DNA of 54,562 nucleotides from a virus (lineage: Duplodnaviria; Heunggongvirae; Uroviricota; Caudoviricetes), in IMG/VR virus record IMGVR_UViG_2568526722_000002, positions 1 to 54,562 of that record; one strand, 5' to 3'. Position numbers and translations under genes: made by a program. The notes under the pieces were generated by a model, which saw nothing but the letters and a program-made list of their open reading frames with translations, had not been told where the DNA came from and made no database searches. This document shows positions 1 to 9,050 of this stretch, in pieces (position 1 is the stretch's first letter; every line of letters starts with the position of its first letter).

Positions 1-771
1 TCAATAAGTACCCTTCTTATTAGGATTCACACTAAATTTCCGTAAAGCATTCCCCGACTTAAGCACTTTTGAAGCCTGCTCATTAGCTGAGGCTGTGAAG
101 GTGCTCTCACCATTTTTAACGCTAACGCTCTTAGAGCACGTTACACGGGCTTTTAGCGCTTCATCTGATAACTCACTTGCCGAATAGCTAAAAAGCTCTT
201 TACAGGTCAGCATAGGGCTTCCAAGATTCGTTGTAGTGTTCCCTGTATTCTTTTTACTGGTAGCACCACCATCATTTGTGGTAGCCGTTTTGCCAGTGGC
301 TGCTGAAATATCAGTTTGCCCTACGATTGAACGAAACTCTACACCTTGGAAGGTCATCTGAATACGAAGACCATTAGCAATGGTATGCTCTTTACTCGCT
401 TTAAACTGAGTAATGATACTATCAGTGATAGATATTCCATCTTTACAAACAATAGTGATGATTTGCTTCTGGTCTCGCCATTGTTCAACCGTAGAAATAA
501 AGGTTTCTACAAGTTGCCCCTGTCTGGTTAATAGAACTGAACCCGTCGAATCAACCACTACAACACCGCTAATAGAGATGGTCTTAGGTGCTCTCTGAAC
601 ATTATCAGTGATAGTTTGCCCCGATTGCATAGCCTGAGTTGTCACCATCATCGGTGAGTCATAGTCCATCTGTTCAGTAGCTGTTAAGGCAAGAAAAGAT
701 TCTACATTATCTCGAAGATGAAAATAGATACCATCTTTACCTGAGTATCTAATTTGCTTTGTGTCAAACAT
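1..771 (-). CDS. phage tail protein of unknown role, directly downstream of the tape measure gene
   Basis: 256-aa ORF, complete (stop TGA is the reverse complement of positions 1-3); sits immediately 3' of the tape measure gene in a minus-strand operon; no motif recognised. Confidence 0.4.
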
Positions 772-944
772 TGTTGTTATTCCTATTCTGTTAAGCGTGA
801 GCTACGTGAAATCTAATTTTTGATGTTGGTATCTGTTCAGAAGAAATCACGTAGCATTCGACTATTCATAGTTGAATCGTCATACTAGATAAAGATTAAT
901 AGATTGCCATGTGTGGCAATAAATATTAGTAGTTCTAACATTGT

Positions 945-3011
945 TTATTCCTCTGGGTAAGCTGAGCTAATCAAGGTATCTTCCTGCATACGATTAATAT
1001 GTGATGTTGTCCTTTCATCAATAACTTTCCCATCAAGTACCGTCTGAGTTGTGATATTGATTGTCTGAGGCTGAATATTTACTGACGGCTTGATAAGCTT
1101 TAAATCTTGTGTGAATGTTTCCACTCGACCTTTCAGATTATTTAATGCTTCAGGTGAAAACTGTGGAACATCTTTTGATTTGCCCTGAACCATAGCCCAT
1201 AAAACAGTGGCTAAAGAGTTCATGTCACCAGTTAATGCTTGGTCTGTGGGTTCCACCTTTGACCTTACAACTTTATCAATTGGATTATCTGACTTACTCA
1301 TCTGACGTTCATAGAACGGTTTGACAATGGCATTAATCACATCAGTTGCCATACCGATAATCACTACTTTGGTAATTGCATCAGCTACAGATAATTTTCC
1401 TTTACCACCTTCAACACTACCGGAACGTGAATTAATTCTTCCTGCTGCTGTATTTGCTACATTTCCAAGCGTGGAAATAGCCCTAATTAAGTTCCAGATA
1501 CCACCTACAGCACCAATACCAGACCTTACAGCGACAATACCAGCAAGTCCCTTTAATGCACTTAACAGGCCATTTGCGATACCATCAGCTACAGCTTTTT
1601 GAGTGTCATTTAATTCTCTGTAAGCAAGGGTCACTCTGTCAAAGAATCCCTGCACTCGGTAGCTAATCGTGGTTAAATCATCAATACCGTTTGACATGCT
1701 TTTCATCAAGTCGCCAAAATGTTCACCAAGATTTTTAGCTTGACCACCCAGTGAATTAAGTAAATTAGTCAGTGACCTTGTAAAGTCTGTTAAACCTTCC
1801 TGTGAACCATCGAACATTAAGGCCAGATTATTATTCCATGAATTACTTAAGCGGCCTAACTGCGTCTGAGTAGAGTTAATAATCTTTTCCCATCCACCAG
1901 CTTTATCAATCATCCTTCCCATTTCAGCGGATACTTTAGGGAGAACATCTTTAGAAAGAACCTTACCGTCTTTCATGGCCTTGTCTAATTCTTCTGTAGT
2001 CATCCCAAGGCTTCTGGCAAATAACTGGAAAGCACCTGCCATTCTGTCACCTAATTGACCACGTAGCTCTTCAGCCTGAATCTTCCCTTTAGAAGCCATC
2101 TGCTCGAAAGCTTTCAGAATCCCGTTAATTTCATCAGTACTTAAACCCATTAATCTGGATGTGCCAATCACATTAGAAAATAGGGATTCTTTCTGGTCTG
2201 TATTCATATCACCAGCACCAGCGGAAAACTTAGCAAAACTGCTTAATGTTTCAATCTGGTCTACACCTGTATTATTAGCAAGATTCTTAACGAAGTCTGT
2301 AGCTCGTTTAGCGCCTTCATCGCCTAATACAAATTGTGCCGCTCGTTGTGATGCTTCTTTTTTCAGACCAACCTCCATAATCTTCCTATAAGCTTCTAAG
2401 GCTGTCTGAAAACTATAAATGGCTGTACCTGCTTTGATTGCACTTGTAGCTAATACATCTAAACCATTTGAAGCATTTTCACTGTGATTGTTTTTGCTGG
2501 TGGTCTTATTAAACTTAGAAAGTGTTTCACGTAGATTTTGATTTAACTTTGCTAACTCACGATTAAAAGCTTCGTTCCCAAGTGTCTTGGATTTACCGCT
2601 TAAGCTGTAATACTGGCTTCTAAAATACTTCTCAAGTAGAGGATTAAAGTCACGAAGCTTGCTCATATTCACGCTATGCGCTGCTGTGATTGCTCTGTTT
2701 CCGCTAATTCGTGGCTGTCTTGGCTGTCTAAGTGGCTTTAAAGTATCCTCAATTTCAGTTTTAATCTTAAACGCTTTAGTGTTTTTAAGACGCTGCTCAA
2801 TCTTGGAAACAGTCTTATCGACATTTCTTTCCATGACCTTGAGAGAATCATTTAAAGGCGTAGGGTTAACTCTGAATGCCTTATTTAGTCGTTTCTCAAT
2901 TCTTGATGCGATTTGCATCGTTTGTTTCTCGGCTTTTTCCAAGCCTTTTAAAACTTTCTGAGAGTTAAAACTTAACTCAATCAGAAAATCATCAACTTTA
3001 AACTGTGCCAT
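945..3011 (-). CDS. phage tail tape measure protein (lambda gpH-type core)
   Basis: 688 aa, coiled-coil rich; carries the conserved tape-measure core GILKAFEQMASKGKIQAEELRGQLGDRMAGAFQ...TTEELDKAMKDGKVL. Confidence 0.8.
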   Translation of the reverse strand: MAQFKVDDFLIELSFNSQKVLKGLEKAEKQTMQIASRIEKRLNKAFRVNPTPLNDSLKVMERNVDKTVSKIEQRLKNTKAFKIKTEIEDTLKPLRQPRQPRISGNRAITAAHSVNMSKLRDFNPLLEKYFRSQYYSLSGKSKTLGNEAFNRELAKLNQNLRETLSKFNKTTSKNNHSENASNGLDVLATSAIKAGTAIYSFQTALEAYRKIMEVGLKKEASQRAAQFVLGDEGAKRATDFVKNLANNTGVDQIETLSSFAKFSAGAGDMNTDQKESLFSNVIGTSRLMGLSTDEINGILKAFEQMASKGKIQAEELRGQLGDRMAGAFQLFARSLGMTTEELDKAMKDGKVLSKDVLPKVSAEMGRMIDKAGGWEKIINSTQTQLGRLSNSWNNNLALMFDGSQEGLTDFTRSLTNLLNSLGGQAKNLGEHFGDLMKSMSNGIDDLTTISYRVQGFFDRVTLAYRELNDTQKAVADGIANGLLSALKGLAGIVAVRSGIGAVGGIWNLIRAISTLGNVANTAAGRINSRSGSVEGGKGKLSVADAITKVVIIGMATDVINAIVKPFYERQMSKSDNPIDKVVRSKVEPTDQALTGDMNSLATVLWAMVQGKSKDVPQFSPEALNNLKGRVETFTQDLKLIKPSVNIQPQTINITTQTVLDGKVIDERTTSHINRMQEDTLISSAYPEE

Positions 3012-3136
3012 TGTTCATATTTCACCTCATAGACTTCGGATAGAAGACTATCTCATATACAAAAAAGGGAGAAACTACCGATATCACTCGATAATCTCTC
3101 CCGTTGATTTTTACCCAACCAATTCTATTAGAAGCT

Positions 3137-3346
3137 TTAATGGTAAACGTAAGAATACATCCCATCATCACCTAAAATCTGTGCGTCACATGGTAATTTA
3201 TCCAAGCACCATGAAGGAATCTTACGTACCTTTGGTTTGTGTGAGGTGATAACTCGACGTTGATTTCCAGTTCGTAGCTTTGGTTTGGTTTGTAACTTTA
3301 AGTTTTCACAAACAGACCGAATAGTCTCTAAACGTTCTTCAAACAT
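3137..3346 (-). CDS. hypothetical small basic protein
   Basis: 69-aa ORF between the 234-aa ORF and the tape measure gene, same strand. Confidence 0.25.
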   Translation of the reverse strand: MFEERLETIRSVCENLKLQTKPKLRTGNQRRVITSHKPKVRKIPSWCLDKLPCDAQILGDDGMYSYVYH

Positions 3347-3368
3347 TAATCACCTCACATATGCATAA

Positions 3369-4073
3369 TTAAATAACCTTACTAAATTCTCGTGGAACAC
3401 TCAAAAAGTCATTGAAGCTACTAATCTGTGCAAGCTCTTGTTTGTATTCCTTAGCGATTTTTTGATGGTCACGAATCAAATTAGCCAGAGTTGATTTCAC
3501 CAAATTAATCTCGGTTTCTCTTACCTTCATCAGTCGCTTTCTAGCCATTTCTTCAAGCTCAGCTTGTGATTTATCAGAAATAATTAAAGTCAGTTTATGT
3601 GGCGCTCTGACAGCTCTTTCTGTACGAACAACTCTTTGGCCTTCTGGTAAATCTGCAATCACTTTACCAATTTCTGAATGGTCATATCCCCAACCGTCAC
3701 GGTCTAGTCTTGTATAATAATCGTAGGTGTTTGTCTGAAGCTCCATCAAAATAGCCATTTCGTCAACTTCATTTTCAAGTTTGGACTGAAGTTTTTCGTA
3801 AACACGATTCATAGCTTTTTGAGAGTCTCGAAGGTCTTTGAAATATTTGCGTTGCAGCTTCAGTTTCAAATCAAGCTCACATTCCTCATTCATCGAAAAA
3901 TCAATTTCAACTCTTGGAATCTCAAATGGTTCTGGTGGAATATATGGACCTTTATTTACTTCGTGTGATTCCCGCCAAGCTCTATCAAAAGATTCACGCA
4001 AAGTTAATTCGTGAATATCAAGTGCACTTGGTCGGCTTTCAATAATCATTTCATTTTCATCACGGATAGCCAT
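3369..4073 (-). CDS. hypothetical phage protein upstream of tape measure gene (possibly a tail assembly chaperone)
   Basis: 234-aa ORF co-oriented with and just upstream of the tape measure gene; function inferred only from position. Confidence 0.3.
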   Translation of the reverse strand: MAIRDENEMIIESRPSALDIHELTLRESFDRAWRESHEVNKGPYIPPEPFEIPRVEIDFSMNEECELDLKLKLQRKYFKDLRDSQKAMNRVYEKLQSKLENEVDEMAILMELQTNTYDYYTRLDRDGWGYDHSEIGKVIADLPEGQRVVRTERAVRAPHKLTLIISDKSQAELEEMARKRLMKVRETEINLVKSTLANLIRDHQKIAKEYKQELAQISSFNDFLSVPREFSKVI

Positions 4074-4330
4074 TAATACCTTTCCTCTTCTAAGATAATT
4101 TATGTTTCAGTTTTTAAAAAGCACACCTGACAGCCTGCGAACTTAGAAGAGACTTAAAAGGCGTTTGCCAAGTATGCTTTTTAAAAGCTGAAAAAAGCCC
4201 TAAACATAGGTGATTCGGATATTCATGGAATCATCCTCATCTGTGAAGGGCTTTGGAGGTTTGCTTATAACGTTAACGAAGTTTCAGGAAAAACTTTCTT
4301 TAAAAGCTCTGTTTAAAACTCTTAAAGAAA

Positions 4331-4358
4331 ACGCCCTAACTCATGATTAGGGCAAAGC
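4331..4358 (-). terminator. candidate intrinsic terminator (minus strand)
   Basis: Inverted repeat GCCCTAA..TTAGGGC followed on the minus strand by a T-rich run, between two minus-strand genes. Confidence 0.3.
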
Positions 4359-4574
4359 TGTAAGGGTTCAATAATGAATGATTAAGCACTTTTTGAGATG
4401 ACCTCTCAGACTAAACTGAAAGGCCATGACGAAAAGCATTGCACCTTTCCAACTCAGAATATCCATCCATCGGATTATTGAAAATATGATTTTAGGAAAA
4501 ATTGCTCTTCCTATATATACAATTATGTCATGCTTAAGATTATTTGTCAACAGCTTTTTAACAGATTGGTAACA

Positions 4575-4652
4575 TCAATTTTTATTTACCGCGTTGCCCA
4601 CCCAGCAACCAACAAATAAACCTAAAGCTGTCCAAGCAATTATTAAGCCCAT
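4575..4652 (-). CDS. small hydrophobic peptide (25 aa, single predicted TM), translationally coupled
   Basis: Not in the ORF track (<60 aa). Reads MGLIIAWTALGLFVGCWVGNAVNKN; its ATG overlaps the stop of the upstream 107-aa ORF (TAATG); AGGTGG lies 6-11 nt upstream. Confidence 0.3.
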   Translation of the reverse strand: MGLIIAWTALGLFVGCWVGNAVNKN

Positions 4653-4975
4653 TAATGCACCACCTTCGAATCCGTAACCAAAACATTGTCAGCGTACAAA
4701 ATTACTATAGCCGCCTTGAGATATTTTTCAGGGCTAACGCTGTATCGGTTAGTTTCCTCAATAATAAGGCGCTTCATGTTTGAGTCGGTAACGGGAAACA
4801 TAAAACGTGGGTCACCAGTTTCAATTTCCTGAATAAAATCTTCAATTGTTTCTGAGTTATCAGCCATTAGCTTTAACAGCCTGTCAAAGTCAATGCTAAT
4901 ACCTGCATCAGTGAAGCTTTGCACCATCATAGCAGTGTCGGTATCAATAAAAATTTGTAATGGGTAACTGTTCAT
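4652..4975 (-). CDS. hypothetical protein
   Basis: 107-aa ORF in the minus-strand gene string of the AT-rich element. Confidence 0.4.
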   Translation of the reverse strand: MNSYPLQIFIDTDTAMMVQSFTDAGISIDFDRLLKLMADNSETIEDFIQEIETGDPRFMFPVTDSNMKRLIIEETNRYSVSPEKYLKAAIVILYADNVLVTDSKVVH

Positions 4976-4998
4976 TTCTTAAAATCTCCTTTTTCACC

Positions 4999-5118
4999 AG
5001 ACCTCCTCAATCGCTCTGTAACGAGCTAAACAGTCTTTTTCAGGGGTAGCCTGTACAGTGGTATTACCCACCCTAAAATAGGGTAGTTTTTTGCGTTAGA
5101 ATGCGATTGAGAGCGTCT
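4999..5118. repeat. structured repeat element, copy 1 (conserved arms CTCAATCGC / GCGATTGAG around a hairpin plus T-tract)
   Basis: Arms nearly identical to copy 2 at 6654-6750; internal hairpin ACCCTA-AAA-TAGGGT followed by TTTTTTG; lies just 3' of the HNH gene. Confidence 0.6.
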
Positions 5119-5132
5119 GAGAAGCTGTTTTT

Positions 5133-5420
5133 CTAATTTCTCTTAAAGTCTCGGACTTGCATAAGATTTTTTGGTCTGGTATCGGCTCTGTTACCATTTC
5201 GATGGATAATTTGCTTATTGGATTGATAGCCATGATAAAGGAACCAGACAACATATTTCACGTAGAAAGTGTATCGGCCTATATTAAATGTTTTGTTGCC
5301 GTAGTCGTCGGTATTTATCGTGACCGACTCTCCATCAGACCAGCACAGGGAATCACTGGATTCATCATAGATAAGGTGTTCTGTAAAATATCGTCTAACA
5401 TCTTCATGCCAAGGTTTCAT
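5133..5420 (-). CDS. HNH homing-type endonuclease (HNH_3-like)
   Basis: 95 aa; C-terminal pattern YVKYVVWFLYHGY...IIHRNGNRADTRPKNL parallels the HRLAW..HG..IDHxNGN..DNRxENL signature of the second HNH gene at 47704. Confidence 0.6.
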   Translation of the reverse strand: MKPWHEDVRRYFTEHLIYDESSDSLCWSDGESVTINTDDYGNKTFNIGRYTFYVKYVVWFLYHGYQSNKQIIHRNGNRADTRPKNLMQVRDFKRN

Positions 5421-5632
5421 AAAACCTCCTCACCCCAATAACCTAATTCAATCTTGTGACGCTCAAACCATTCCGGTTTAACTGCTGTTTTCAGTGCTTC
5501 ATTTGGGCCAATGGCTTTAATGAAAATATCTTTTGAGTTATGGATGTCACCGAATCCGTTTCCTTCAATCAGGAGGTCGGAGATGTAGCGAATCATTTTA
5601 TCTGTGTGGTATTCAAAGGTAACGCATAGCAT
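5417..5632 (-). CDS. hypothetical protein
   Basis: 71-aa ORF, start overlaps the stop of the downstream HNH gene. Confidence 0.35.
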   Translation of the reverse strand: MLCVTFEYHTDKMIRYISDLLIEGNGFGDIHNSKDIFIKAIGPNEALKTAVKPEWFERHKIELGYWGEEVL

Positions 5633-5913
5633 TAAACCTCCATCGCTAATTTGTGAATTTTGATACTCATTAGACGGGAAATATCAATTTTAAAGTTGTT
5701 AAGTCCCTTCAAAGTATCTAAAGCGTCCTGAGTAATTCGGATGTGTTTACGACCTTTAGAGACTGGATATTTCAGTAAATCCGACTCAGTGACCTCTTTA
5801 GCAATCGCAAGTTGCATAATAGTTTGATGAGGCAGGCTAGTTGTCTGTTTAATTCGGGTAAGCTCGTTAAAAGCTTCCTCTGAAATACGGGTTAATGTGT
5901 GTCTGCTTTTCAT
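5632..5913 (-). CDS. hypothetical small protein, possibly DNA-binding
   Basis: ORF track gives 5632-5994; the internal ATG at 5913 has a GGAGGAA Shine-Dalgarno and sits 1 nt after the stop of the upstream 183-aa ORF. Confidence 0.35.
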   Translation of the reverse strand: MKSRHTLTRISEEAFNELTRIKQTTSLPHQTIMQLAIAKEVTESDLLKYPVSKGRKHIRITQDALDTLKGLNNFKIDISRLMSIKIHKLAMEV

Positions 5914-5914
5914 T

Positions 5915-6466
5915 TTAAAATTCCTCCAAAATATACGGGTCAAACTCAAAGTCTGGTTCACTGGTCGTAAGGCTAATATTGCCCACTTCCACATGATGAT
6001 TGATTGTCTCGATAACTTTATTGCAAATGGTGGCTAAGTTAGCGCAATATTTATCGCTTGGTAGCTCATGGCTTAATCGGGTCGCTTGACGCTGAAGACA
6101 ATTTGTTATTGTGCTTGAGCTAATTTTGTCAATATTTCGTAATAGATAGAAAACTTTCCGGTGATAATTATCCCTTCCAAGACTGCGACAAGTACCGATA
6201 ATTATATCTTCAATTTTTGATGGTAATTGCTCGTAAGAATCAAAGCTCATCAGGAAAGTCTTTAAAGTGTTCTCTTTTTCTTTGCGTGTTGGCATGTGTC
6301 TTACCCGTGGCGTAATGCTACGAATGACCGCTTCAATGTTTCTACGTTCGGATTTGGTAAAGGCTGGGACTTCGTAGCTGGTGGGGGTGTCTGTGTAGCT
6401 GTAACCGTTGTGTCTGTTGCGTCTCTTGGATTCTTCAAGAAACTTTTGAAATTCTCTGTCGTTCAT
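5915..6466 (-). CDS. hypothetical protein
   Basis: 183-aa ORF; no recognised motif. Confidence 0.4.
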   Translation of the reverse strand: MNDREFQKFLEESKRRNRHNGYSYTDTPTSYEVPAFTKSERRNIEAVIRSITPRVRHMPTRKEKENTLKTFLMSFDSYEQLPSKIEDIIIGTCRSLGRDNYHRKVFYLLRNIDKISSSTITNCLQRQATRLSHELPSDKYCANLATICNKVIETINHHVEVGNISLTTSEPDFEFDPYILEEF

Positions 6467-6549
6467 TCATATTCTGACCCTCATAAGATGTTATTATTCT
6501 GTTAACTCATATATACAATACTAGCAGTTTCAAAGACTAATGTCAAGTA

Positions 6550-6582
6550 TTTTTTAACATTTTATTAACATTTGTGGTATAA
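6550..6582 (+). promoter_or_regulatory. candidate sigma70 promoter with extended -10 (TGgTATAAT)
   Basis: TATAAT at 6577-6582 preceded by TG one base upstream; AT-rich upstream region; points rightward into repeat copy 2. Confidence 0.4.
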
Positions 6583-6653
6583 TGGTCCTATGGGGAGAGT
6601 AAAATATAAAGGCGTGGCCATGTATTTGGTCACATGGTTATTGCATTGCACAC

Positions 6654-6750
6654 AGACCTCTTCAATCGCCCTGTAACGAGTTAAACGACCTCTTCAGGTC
6701 AACTCATAAGGTCAGGTACTTTTTGTGTCAGAATGCGATTGAGAGCGTCT
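6654..6750. repeat. structured repeat element, copy 2
   Basis: Same conserved arms as copy 1; different internal hairpin (GACCT-CTTC-AGGTC) followed by TTTTTG. Confidence 0.6.
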
Positions 6751-6764
6751 TACAAGGAAATTTA

Positions 6765-6953
6765 ATGGTAAATCTCCCTCCTGAGCTGGGGTCACCTGAT
6801 GTATGGGCTGGTGGAGGTATTGGACTTATTGCAGGTCTGCTGCTTCGCTATTTCATCGTCAGAGTGTTTATCGTGTTCAGATTGTTTGGTCGTGAATGGT
6901 CGTTTGACCTCAAGGACAGAGGCCGTGAAGACAATCACACAGAACCCCGCTAA
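6765..6953 (+). CDS. candidate small membrane protein (62 aa)
   Basis: Internal start of track ORF 6723-6953; AAGGAAA Shine-Dalgarno before the ATG at 6765; hydrophobic stretch GGGIGLIAGLLLRYFIVRVFIVF; downstream of the promoter and repeat copy 2. Confidence 0.25.
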   Translation: MVNLPPELGSPDVWAGGGIGLIAGLLLRYFIVRVFIVFRLFGREWSFDLKDRGREDNHTEPR

Positions 6954-7071
6954 ACTCCCTCCAAAACCCCCTGTACGAGATGGTATAGGGGTATCTTTAG
7001 CATTTTGTGCTATCCATGAAAAAATAACTTGACAGAACCGGAAAGCTGTATCTATCAAGTATTCACCCTTC

Positions 7072-7226
7072 TAACAGTAATTTCTAAAAGTTCTTATTTT
7101 TCAATAAGTTGTAATTAGCCATATATAGAGAACTGACAAGTCTCTTCACAGACAACTCTGCAACCTTAACAGTAACTTCTAAAAATGCTTATTTTTCAAC
7201 GAGTTGTAATCACCCAATATATAAGG
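7072..7226. repeat. two imperfect ~60-bp direct repeats (period ~95 bp) in a non-coding region
   Basis: TAACAGTAAyTTCTAAAA..CTTATTTTTCAAyrAGTTGTAAT..ATATATA occurs at 7072-7131 and 7167-7226. Confidence 0.6.
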
Positions 7227-8029
7227 CTGTCCAGCACCTTCACAGAGAAACTTCAGAGGTCTTCTTAATCAATCCACTAAGCGGGAGAGAGCGATAACCC
7301 CAGAGAGGGAAGCTCCCTTCTTAATCGGCCTCCTAACCAGTCTTTACAAACCTTGTTCAAGGTAATCACAATAGATTTTTCTTCCCTCGTTCTTCGTGTT
7401 CCTCGGTTTGCCTATTGAGACTTGAAAGACCTCTGTAACTTCCCTCTTAGACAGGGAAGAATAATATTGGTGACACAAGCGAAGCGCCCCTCTAAAAAGA
7501 TTTTTTAGCTATTTTGTTTAAAAACACATCAAACGATACATTTTATTGATTTAGGTCAAAGACAAAAGCATTGACAAAATGGTAAGATTGTTCACATGAC
7601 CTTACTTAACAGACTTTTAAGAGGCTTTGAAACGACCTACTTAACAAGGTCACTACATCTGGTCTTATCGTTCCCTGTCTTCTTGGTAGTTCTGTTAAGT
7701 ATCTTTTCAGGTATCTCTTACAGTCACTGTTAAGATGATACTCTCCCTTCGGGTTATATCGTATCTCTTCCCCCGTTAAACACTCCTTCCTAACAACTTC
7801 ATAGTTATCTGTCAAGTACCTTTGAAGATTCTATCAAGACCTCTAAATCTGACCTGATATAGATGCTGTGAAGGCATGTTCTCTAGGTCTGTGTAGCTTA
7901 CTTAGCGGGAAAAGAGGATATGGTGACCATAGGGGAACCCCTCCTGTTAAAAGTTTCTTGATGTTATCATCACAATATGTATAATCACCAACTGTACAGA
8001 CACCTTAACGGTTTCTCTACACCTCACTA

Positions 8030-8095
8030 TGGCTAGGTAGGGTATGGTTTAGCTTGGTACGGCTAGGTTAGGTCTGGTTTGGTTAGGTATGGGTG
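8030..8095. repeat. G/T-rich iterated short repeats (GGTTAGGT / GGCTAGGT / GGTCTGG units)
   Basis: Run of 7-8-bp GGT-rich units read directly from the sequence; iteron-like. Confidence 0.5.
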
Positions 8096-8127
8096 GATTG
8101 TCGTAGCCACGTTAAAAATCGACTTAT

Positions 8128-8152
8128 AGGGACTCTTTCGGGAGTCCTTTTT
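8128..8152 (+). terminator. candidate intrinsic terminator
   Basis: Hairpin GGGACTC-TTTCG-GGAGTCC followed by TTTTTAG. Confidence 0.35.
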
Positions 8153-8381
8153 AGTTTGTATAAAATCTGTACAGTAACTTTTCAGAGTCTGAAAATTTTT
8201 ATAAAAAATGACTAGCCCTCTTTGAATCTCATCTTCCCCGAATCTTCGAAAATATCTGTCTAGTTGATTCGGTAGAATCTACCTCATGATGTATACCTGC
8301 TAAGTACCCGTCACACCAGCTATGTGACCCCCTTTGCAAAAAAGCCAAATATCAGCTACATCCATGTAACTATTCGGTAAC

Positions 8382-8930
8382 TTATTTAGCAAGTCTGTAA
8401 TAAGTTGCTTTAGAGATTCCTAATTCTTCCTGAATCTGCAACCTCGTTTTACCTTGTGAAATAAGCGTCTGTACAGCCTCTGAAGAAGCTTTTACAGGCC
8501 TCCCCATATGTACCCCTTCAGCTTTAGCACGTTCAATACCAGCCTTTCTACGTTCACTGATAAGGTCTTTTTCAAGGTCAGCTAAACCAGCCATCATAGT
8601 AAGCATTGCTCTACCGATTGGTGTTAATAAGTCGAAACCTTCACGCAAAGAAACAACTCTCACACCTTTAGTCTGTAGTGCCTCCACGTTAGAGAGCACA
8701 TCAACGGTATTACGCCCTAAACGGTCAATAGCTACCACAACTAACGTATCGTCACACCTTACATAGTTCATCATGTCTCTAAAACCATCTCTGCTGGTGG
8801 CCTTTGTAGCTCCTGAGACAGCCTCATCAATAAACCATTTATCGACCTTGTGAACCTTCTCTATCTGTAGTTTCTGGTTGTCTACAGTCTGGTCTTGTGT
8901 TGATACCCTGCAATAACCAATCACCGCCAT
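8382..8930 (-). CDS. small serine recombinase (resolvase/invertase family)
   Basis: 182 aa; N-terminal catalytic block IGYCRVSTQDQ (Ser nucleophile), VVAIDRLGRN, and a C-terminal HTH; typical resolvase size. Confidence 0.85.
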   Translation of the reverse strand: MAVIGYCRVSTQDQTVDNQKLQIEKVHKVDKWFIDEAVSGATKATSRDGFRDMMNYVRCDDTLVVVAIDRLGRNTVDVLSNVEALQTKGVRVVSLREGFDLLTPIGRAMLTMMAGLADLEKDLISERRKAGIERAKAEGVHMGRPVKASSEAVQTLISQGKTRLQIQEELGISKATYYRLAK

Positions 8931-8945
8931 ACATCCCCCTTAGAA

Positions 8946-9050
8946 GTCTCAAAAGTTGGTCTCATAAGTTTAGCTGTCTCACAATCCAAAAACAACCTTT
9001 TGAGACACTTGGAAGGTGCATTCTACCGTTACGTTGAAAGTGTCTCAAAA
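8946..9050. promoter_or_regulatory. res-like array of recombinase half-sites upstream of the serine recombinase gene
   Basis: Five GTCTCA / TGAGAC motifs in both orientations within ~100 bp immediately 5' of the recombinase gene; resembles the TGTCyNNTA half-sites of Tn3-type res sites. Confidence 0.4.

Follow-up and report, generated by a model that had tools for sequence, protein, structure and literature searches.

The stretch of viral DNA analysed here (the window, 54.5 kb at full length; Caudoviricetes, IMG/VR record IMGVR_UViG_2568526722_000002, positions 1–54,562) opens with an island of ~11 kb (window 1 to ~9500), which in Escherichia coli lies between tonB and yciI. Its genes code for a Dit-like protein, a tape-measure protein, several small proteins without a family match, an HNH_3 endonuclease (5133–5420, − strand) and a small serine recombinase (8382–8930, −), and in E. 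coli a large serine recombinase gene is found just left of the point where the window starts. Our subject is a palindromic module that occurs twice in this island: copy 1 at 4999–5118 (+; left arm 4999–5031, T-tract 5087–5092, right arm 5098–5118) and copy 2 at 6654–6750 (+; left arm 6654–6686, right arm 6730–6750). An earlier, sequence-only reading had proposed that the two copies share near-identical arms able to pair with each other, and that their centres form terminator-like hairpins.

The arms and their pairing were confirmed. As direct repeats, the left arms (4998–5031 and 6653–6686, 34 nt) are 91% identical and the right arms (5088–5124 and 6720–6756, 37 nt) 89% identical, while no alignment of the centres is possible and copy 1 exceeds copy 2 by 23 nt. 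When the window was scanned with up to 3 mismatches allowed, each arm pattern occurred exactly twice, and not once in 100 shuffles. The arms pair as CTCAATCGC/GCGATTGAG plus AGAC/GTCT, the inverted-repeat ends of the element being AGACCTCCTCAATCGC / GCGATTGAGAGCGTCT. Each whole copy folds as a single long irregular hairpin (−47.8 kcal/mol, z = −6.2 for copy 1; −33.2 kcal/mol, z = −3.9 for copy 2), and folding of both strands, which the earlier reading had suggested as a check, gave a good structure on either strand of each copy.

The terminator hairpins fared differently. In copy 1 the ACCCTA-AAA-TAGGGT hairpin followed by a T-run does exist in this window, but it is not kept in other islands: the TAGGGT form was present in only 5 of ~60 recovered copy-1 loci, the others having mostly ACCCTAAAATAAGATAG or ..AAGGTAG, and the hairpin position reads TAAGATAG or TAAGGTAG in most islands. 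In copy 2 the GACCT-CTTC-AGGTC hairpin and the T-run are 19 nt apart and do not form a terminator unit. The T-runs of both copies align with T-tracts of plasmid cer-like sites, the site-specific recombination sites to which we return below. We rejected an internal terminator or attenuator because the hairpin is either unconserved or does not adjoin the T-run. The covariance models of Rfam gave no match at the element, even when the limit was relaxed from the gathering threshold to E ≤ 10, and no tRNA-like gene was detected by ARAGORN. The element is real and structured, but its first interpretation as a terminator or a miniature inverted-repeat transposable element (MITE) is largely wrong.

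Both copies lie on the + strand although their neighbouring genes differ in strand, and both stop 5–9 nt short of a Shine–Dalgarno sequence. Copy 1 sits between the HNH gene and a gene for a 107-aa protein (4652–4975, −), with 9 nt from its end to the Shine–Dalgarno sequence of the latter. Copy 2 belongs to a + strand unit composed of a promoter, a leader, a small open reading frame (ORF) and a terminator-like site (6968–6991). The strong extended −10 promoter predicted upstream of copy 2 is indeed present at 6554–6583 (+; sigma-70-type, TTAACA-18-TATAAT with TG, 11/12 match) and is the best sigma-70 match of the region; a divergent promoter lies at 6546–6518 (−), and diversity is low over 6500–6559. 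The small hydrophobic ORF (6765–6953, +) was likewise found as described, coding for a putative one-helix membrane protein of 62 aa here and 58 aa in other islands, which is conserved in relatives. Copy 2 does lie within the leader of a predicted small-ORF transcript, as had been proposed, while the attenuator hairpin assigned to that leader is unsupported. A type I toxin-like leader also failed to hold up, with the Shine–Dalgarno sequence AAGGA outside the helix and the ORF retained without copy 2 in 13 of 46 islands. The leader just upstream of copy 2 (6600–6650) is an indel hotspot when the window is compared with island variants L001, L005 and L008; other islands have an extra hairpin-containing segment of ~55 nt (GGGGTTGGTACAAGCCCAAC...), which the window lacks.

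Selection on the hairpin and its homology to plasmid cer-type sites

Relatives of the module were found in other islands, in phages and on plasmids, and an alignment of 22 sequences (island and phage members together with 13 plasmid sequences) carried the compensatory changes that the earlier reading had asked for. One continuous helix of 27 pairs fits all 22 sequences. Pairing was intact in 71% of cells in register versus 35–40% with partners slid by 1–3 columns, a control that retains the relatedness of the sequences. Cells with changes on both sides of a pair numbered 44 versus 24 ± 3.3 in shuffles, none of 500 shuffles reaching 44, although the groups are phylogenetically clustered, so that independent events are counted poorly. 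Ten pairs showed changes on both sides, and several positions were split between C–G and G–C.

A more specific case is provided by L143, a diverged island (70% identical overall). In its copy-1 orthologue the right arm has changed from GCGATTGAGAGCG to GCGTTACAGAGCG (ATTG to TTAC) and the left arm has lost CTCAATC, and GCTCTGTAACG/CGTTACAGAGC now pair in a new register with a folding energy of −44 kcal/mol; both arms have thus re-paired in another register in L143/L141. In islands of the L139/L140 type the copy-1 position is occupied by a rearranged hairpin in which parts of the element can still be recognised. Nucleotide diversity across 32 island variants was 0.06–0.08 in the arms versus 0.22–0.27 in the flanking protein genes; the value for the left arm, which was absent from all search patterns, is free of ascertainment bias. 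Within islands the arms are too conserved for compensation to be seen, and single transitions create wobble pairs equally on either strand. Given the covariation across the family and the re-pairing of both arms in L143/L141, the long hairpin itself is, with high confidence, under selection.

Copy 2 also shows a strand bias. Its + strand, which would be the transcribed one, is the more stable in 21 of 23 variants, by 6.4 kcal/mol on average, and its outer stem has 51 G–U pairs on the + strand versus 21 on the − strand. Such a difference in stability and G–U content speaks for copy 2 working as RNA within the small-ORF leader.

The lead to the origin of the module was a single E. coli hit on a plasmid, in which the right-arm sequence stood 10 nt upstream of GGTACGTACAA-ACAGATG-TTATGTTTAAT, which we took to be a XerC–spacer–XerD core. 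A related stretch was found in 1443 PLSDB plasmids, mostly small mobilisable Col-type replicons, beside the canonical core GGTGCGTACAA-N6-8-TTATGGTAAAT. In the 13 plasmids that were fetched for the architecture of the cer site, ColE1 itself (L128) among them, the order of parts was constant: an ArgR-box-like TGCATAG..TATGCA, a 5′ arm (AACGATTCTGACGCA), a T-rich centre, a 3′ arm (TTTTTTGCGTCAGAAAGCGATTGAGRGCGTTTTA) and the Xer core. We built an nhmmer profile hidden Markov model from seven plasmid cer-like sites including ColE1, with all island and phage sequences excluded, and ran it over the entire 54.5-kb window with all filters off. It matched copy 2 at 6720–6776 (E = 1.7e−6), with an alignment running through the XerD arm, and copy 1 at 5086–5120 (E = 2.2e−3); the next match in the window had E = 0.18, so that only the two copies were significant. 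The same profile aligned across both arms of an element in Asteriusvirus genomes (L125, E = 2.4e−4; L002, E = 4.1e−4) and also matched the phage-type contigs L004 and L054. Since a profile made from plasmids only matches both copies and their phage relatives, the element is very probably the counterpart of the palindrome that cer-type sites (those of ColE2/Col156-like and ColE1-like plasmids) have between ArgR box and XerC arm.

Copy 2 is followed by what appears to be a remnant of the Xer core (6745–6773, +), which overlaps the ATG of the small ORF at 6765. It consists of a XerC-like arm GCGTCTTACAA (6745–6755; 7/11 matches to cer, 6/7 over the inner 7 nt, with an 11-nt deletion there in the profile alignment), a 7-bp spacer GGAAATT (6756–6762) and a XerD-like arm TAATGGTAAAT (6763–6773; 10/11 to cer TTATGGTAAAT). 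The window has four XerD-like 11-mers where ~1.8 are expected by chance, so it is the position of this arm that counts. The start of the small ORF would now overlap a decayed core of doubtful function. Copy 1 has neither a XerD arm nor any Xer core adjoining it, while in islands of the L012 type it is followed by AGTGGGTAAAA (8/11 to the XerC arm), which hints at a decayed core. A TTGCAT at 6641–6646 (+) is identical to the left half of the ColE1 ArgR box, which is also the −35 element of the promoter Pcer, and lies ~98 nt upstream of the XerC-like arm, near the ColE1 spacing. The right half of an ArgR box ~100 bp upstream of the core is missing, and this region, TTGCAT included, was not aligned by the cer profile. 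An ArgR-box-like sequence TGCATAGTCATTCA was also seen at 9427–9440, near the right end of the island, with a profile match that was not significant (E = 3.3), and island variant L005 has a dif-like core GTGCGTAAAA-CAGCTA-TTATGTTAAA (10389–10422, −), which the window lacks.

Spread of the module and its island setting

Among 5426 complete E. coli genomes, with a copy counted as present at ≥80% coverage, copy 1 was found in 336 and copy 2 in 190; the median was one place per genome, and the copies lay in the island or in plasmid cer sites. Exact-pattern scans recovered the island module many times from metagenomes and also found it in another type of phage-like contig (L004) and, as a more distant phage-type member, in L054; among species representatives, E. 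albertii was the only one with more than chance hits. When gaps were allowed in the pattern, to reach phage-type members whose right arms differ, nothing beyond chance hits was returned. BLAST searches of phage genomes with the whole of copy 1 gave a match only via the right arm (23–24 nt exact), in intergenic DNA of the E. coli jumbo phages of the genus Asteriusvirus. There each genome has one element, counted twice in records that include both 21.5-kb terminal repeats; it is placed mid-repeat with a terminator on one side and an early promoter on the other, and the surrounding genes are unrelated to those of the island. A packaging or regulatory site shared with Asteriusvirus as a helper phage was considered and rejected, as the phage copy is in mid-repeat rather than at a boundary and the island and phage flanks have no protein homology. 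A Chi sequence, GCTGGTGG(AG), is present at 6807–6814 within the small ORF, just 3′ of copy 2, and another lies within the centre of the Asteriusvirus element (L002 ~2483–2490; L003), which may be a coincidence.

In the 13 islands of 46 that lack copy 2, it is missing precisely, as a clean indel of 101–103 nt with its limits at the ends of the arms. Two empty haplotypes exist, with junctions offset by 1–2 nt and a junction ambiguity of 1–2 nt (AG), and the empty alleles retain the XerD-like arm. Hairpin-stimulated slippage is a known behaviour of long inverted repeats, and from the offset junctions, the minimal ambiguity and the retained XerD-like arm we read the empty alleles as probable independent deletions of the palindrome by such slippage, not as insertions. 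A copy 1/copy 2 hybrid, the product expected from deletion between the two, was absent among more than 90 copies.

Island variants lose their homology precisely where copy 1 ends on its right side (L010, L012), or else within the element (L089, L071). A third copy, diverged and inverted, occurs in the right-hand non-coding region of L141 (2501–2662) and L142 (~3886, −), where it replaces ~240 nt and carries ~40 nt of copy-1 flank; these two lineages also hold a rearranged hairpin at the copy-1 position. In the window the flank that moves with copy 1 is 5119–5157, making 4997–5157 one module, and the border of an indel that contains the HNH gene (5157/5158) coincides with its edge. The third copy with its flank, the breakpoints at the element and the HNH border at the module edge together indicate that the module spreads and recombines as a segment, and not as a transposon.

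Other candidates were considered and set aside. Res sites for the small serine recombinase were rejected in view of the lack of further arm-motif copies and of a copy 1 × copy 2 deletion product; such a recombinase co-occurs with the element in the island, in L004 and in plasmid L126. Xer-mediated insertion, of the type of integrative mobile elements exploiting Xer (IMEX) or of CTX, was rejected because a XerD-like arm is missing at the left junction and the two empty alleles are joined differently. Comparison by eye gave only partial matches to a boxA/nut-like CGCTCT, integron attC boxes, Tn3-type inverted repeats and IHF sites.

The island itself resembles a satellite or a pared-down element of phage origin. 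It is 98% identical to its counterpart in E. coli O55:H7 (L001) over window 1–10023, to the right of which the window is not collinear, and it is present in ~8% of complete E. coli genomes with 10–25% divergence between variants. Its tail genes (TMP_3 and Dit_like) are presumably of siphovirus type. PADLOC, NCBIfam and PHROGs assigned the island proteins no function beyond tape-measure protein, Dit, HNH and recombinase, and the homologues of a 183-aa protein are all annotated as hypothetical. The HNH_3 gene is polymorphic for presence (5158–5434 is missing in L007, L143 and others) and very uniform, with a diversity of 0.025 as against differences of ~25% in the other island genes. It has the look of a homing endonuclease that has been spreading recently, with its insertion point at the border of the copy-1 module.

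Several non-coding features of the island and window were recorded in passing. At 4105–4193, upstream of a gene for a 234-aa protein (3369–4073, −), there is a long inverted repeat with 28-nt arms (86% complementary), whose RNA helix is more stable on the − (operon) strand than on the other (−36.1 vs −29.6 kcal/mol); this repeat may provide the island with a further hairpin, for processing or of terminator type. On the − strand, a promoter-like TTGACA-17-CATAAT with TG (4550–4522) is followed ~170 nt further on by a terminator-like hairpin (4354–4332), with no convincing ORF between them, and 4550–4332 (−) may be a small RNA gene. The ~1.4 kb at 7000–8380 has no ORF of 60 aa or more and contains 50-nt repeats (7072–7121 and 7167–7216; partial repeat at 9333–9353), and three inverted-repeat pairs bracket the recombinase gene at 8382–8930 (7691–7711/9305–9325, 7785–7806/9127–9148 and 8251–8273/9119–9141); the regions 7000–8380 and 9100–9350 could represent an origin with iterons or an invertible segment. 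The sole RNA match at gathering level in the window was Rfam isrJ, an Hfq-binding small RNA (38420–38493, −; 68.7 bits).

Competing explanations and comparison with known systems

With confidence just short of even, we interpret the module as a duplicated cer-type palindrome kept by selection and acting as an RNA stem-loop in the transcripts of the island. A single imperfect palindrome, derived from the accessory region of a cer-type XerCD multimer-resolution site on a plasmid, would have been duplicated, and its two copies would then have diverged. The place of action would be, for copy 2, the 5′ leader of an mRNA that starts from the promoter at 6554–6583 and carries the small ORF and, for copy 1, the gap between two cistrons of a leftward operon. 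That operon also contains the helix with 28-nt arms at 4105–4193, which is more stable on the operon strand and is in line with this interpretation. At each place an irregular helix of 20–30 bp just upstream of the ribosome-binding site could serve as a processing (RNase III-type) or stability determinant. Our working analogy is with the R sites of T7 and the N leader of lambda, in which long irregular helices lie between cistrons or in leaders, upstream of ribosome-binding sites. The conserved module might double as a junction for recombination between island variants. A cis-acting RNA role of the hairpin, judged by itself, is a tentative proposal to which we give somewhat less than even weight.

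Several observations speak against this interpretation. Copy 1 has no strand preference (14 of 22), and its wobble pairs give no signal for RNA on the operon strand. Copy 2 is absent from 28% of islands. The HNH neighbour has a diversity of only 0.025, and co-conversion with it could partly explain the low diversity of the arms. Homology to cer is strong only in the 3′ half, and the ArgR box is unrecognisable. Whole-element BLAST queries reached other families only through the right arm, which is conserved beyond the needs of a helix (19–24 nt identical in islands, jumbo phages and L004), although part of this conservation is ascertainment, as the collection scans used a right-arm 19-mer. A plain helix leaves such strict conservation unexplained, and this keeps protein-binding and Rcd-like readings alive.

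As cer resolves multimers of ColE1, copy 2 might be a working XerCD DNA site, perhaps with PepA, that resolves multimers of an excised circular island, copy 1 being inert; the island would be excised by its large serine recombinase and would then use host XerC/XerD. The XerD arm (10/11), the 7-bp spacer and the inner XerC arm (6/7) stand at the expected position after the right arm, TTGCAT lies roughly at that of the ArgR box, the T-tracts are as in cer, and the lack of copy 1–copy 2 deletions among the more than 90 copies fits with only one copy having a core. We nevertheless consider such a site unlikely: the profile alignment deletes 11 nt and with them the greater part of the XerC arm; no full ArgR box is present; a conserved ORF begins in the XerD-like arm, which islands without the palindrome also keep, so that coding alone may constrain it; and the island was not seen to replicate as a circle, an 11.5-kb island contig having no terminal overlap. 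Conservation of the coreless copy 1 and of the phage copies would also be left unexplained. The conservation of the module would be only apparent, reflecting youth or homogenisation by recombination and HNH-driven gene conversion, if the module were a neutral relic of plasmid–island recombination whose main effect is to offer a homologous junction for module shuffling. The breaks in variant homology at the right end of copy 1 (L010/L012) or within the element (L089, L071) agree with this, as does the adjoining HNH gene, a recent spreader (diversity 0.025) inserted at the module border 5157/5158. A neutral relic is nonetheless decidedly unlikely, given that the compensated re-pairing in L143/L141 and the G–U strand bias of copy 2 would be unexpected and that conservation holds in HNH-less islands too.

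A further alternative is suggested by ColE1, whose Rcd RNA binds tryptophanase, raises indole and arrests division. Pcer has a 15-bp spacer and directs transcription from the ArgR side toward the XerCD site, and Rcd is a 70-nt single stem-loop (PMC5935869, PMC2831885, PMC4393325). In the ColE1 sequence TTGCAT-15 nt-TAAAAT stands just upstream of the palindrome, and from this agreement we infer that the palindrome is the body of Rcd. The module might accordingly be an Rcd-like small RNA, read from the + strand and acting in trans to manipulate the host in both the island and the jumbo phages. Its homology to the region transcribed as Rcd in ColE1, the + orientation of both island copies despite the differing strands of their neighbours, the preference of copy 2 for the + strand and the right-arm sequence kept across otherwise unrelated genomes all point in this direction. 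The proposal is still an improbable one, for there is no Pcer-like promoter: the plasmid −10 position reads CTCAATCG in the island, where the promoter scan called none, and copy 1 has no convincing + promoter, its TTGTAA-19 nt-TAAAAT being uncalled by the scan. In addition, the plasmid GCGTTTTA end is GCGTCTGA/GCGTCTTA in the island, and the loop sequences are unrelated to those of ColE1. Least probable of all, and very unlikely in our judgement, is mobility of the MITE kind, in which an element bounded by terminal inverted repeats would insert itself between genes of phage-related genomes. The sequence-only reading had allowed for either a structured RNA or such an element; a discrete element with a helix kept by selection was borne out, and a classical MITE was not. 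Inverted-repeat ends, the clean 101–103-nt indel of copy 2 bounded by the arm ends, copies that occupy three positions and face either way, depending on the island, and relatives in phages and plasmids would all suit a MITE. Against this, there is no target duplication, only 1–2 nt of junction ambiguity; the empty-allele junctions, offset by 1–2 nt, better fit hairpin-stimulated deletion; the right flank of copy 2 (the XerD arm) shares the plasmid homology of the element and is kept in empty alleles; and the ~40 nt of copy-1 flank on the third copy indicate segmental copying. The median complete E. coli genome has one place only, most of these being in the island, and no transposase is associated with the element.

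Sites of the cer/Xer type and Rcd are textbook plasmid-stability devices. What is new here is that a cer/Rcd-type palindrome has been preserved, with no complete recombination site around it, twice in a phage-related island and once in every Asteriusvirus jumbo phage. Literature searches turned up no relevant account of cer-like sites in satellites or jumbo phages, and a search by sequence string returned only an irrelevant primer match. A palindromic core under selection without the full recombination site suggests a hairpin function that can be detached from Xer recombination, and it documents the exchange of a non-coding module between plasmids, phages and islands; the module is at the same time a breakpoint for module shuffling beside a homing endonuclease gene. 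It is conceivable, though a long shot, that phage-related genomes (the ~11-kb serine-recombinase island with its tail proteins, Asteriusvirus and another phage type) captured the cer/Rcd hairpin as a host-manipulating RNA or as a XerCD/PepA-dependent DNA site. If true, this would place cer/Rcd biology in phage and satellite life cycles and not in those of plasmids only.

Among known systems, the RNase III processing hairpins of T7 and lambda have no sequence relationship to the island element. ERIC/IRU and Correia elements resemble it as imperfect palindromes of ~100–130 bp in transcribed intergenic DNA that are polymorphic for presence; unlike them, the island element is not dispersed over the chromosome and makes no target duplication, and to our knowledge it has no sequence similarity to their consensus sequences. 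The Asteriusvirus element (in 121Q, PBECO4, EJP2 and others) is closer: it is non-coding, has a 23–24-nt exact right-arm match with both arms alignable, and also matches the cer profile, while differing in its single copy per genome, the Chi sequence in its centre, its unrelated flanking genes and the lack of a Xer core. With Rcd/Pcer, the element shares the position and orientation of the Rcd-coding palindrome and the form of a single long stem-loop of 70–120 nt. It differs in lacking a Pcer-like promoter and the GCGTTTTA 3′ end and in its unrelated loop, with copy 2 embedded in an mRNA leader and copy 1 antisense to an operon. From the cer sites of ColE1, ColE2/Col156-like and ColRNAI-like plasmids the island differs in having no complete ArgR box, a XerC arm that is largely deleted or replaced, a coreless copy 1 and an extended outer stem (CTCAATCGC/GCGATTGAG); the element resides in a chromosomal phage-related island and in jumbo-phage DNA, whereas cer is found on plasmids, and the two direct island copies coexist without recombining. 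Shared with cer are a right arm and T-tract near-identical to the segment upstream of the XerC arm (TTTTTTGCGTCAGAAAGCGATTGAGRGCGTTTTA), a left arm homologous to AACGATTCTGACGCATT, the same long hairpin in the same alignment register and, after copy 2, the spacer and XerD arm.

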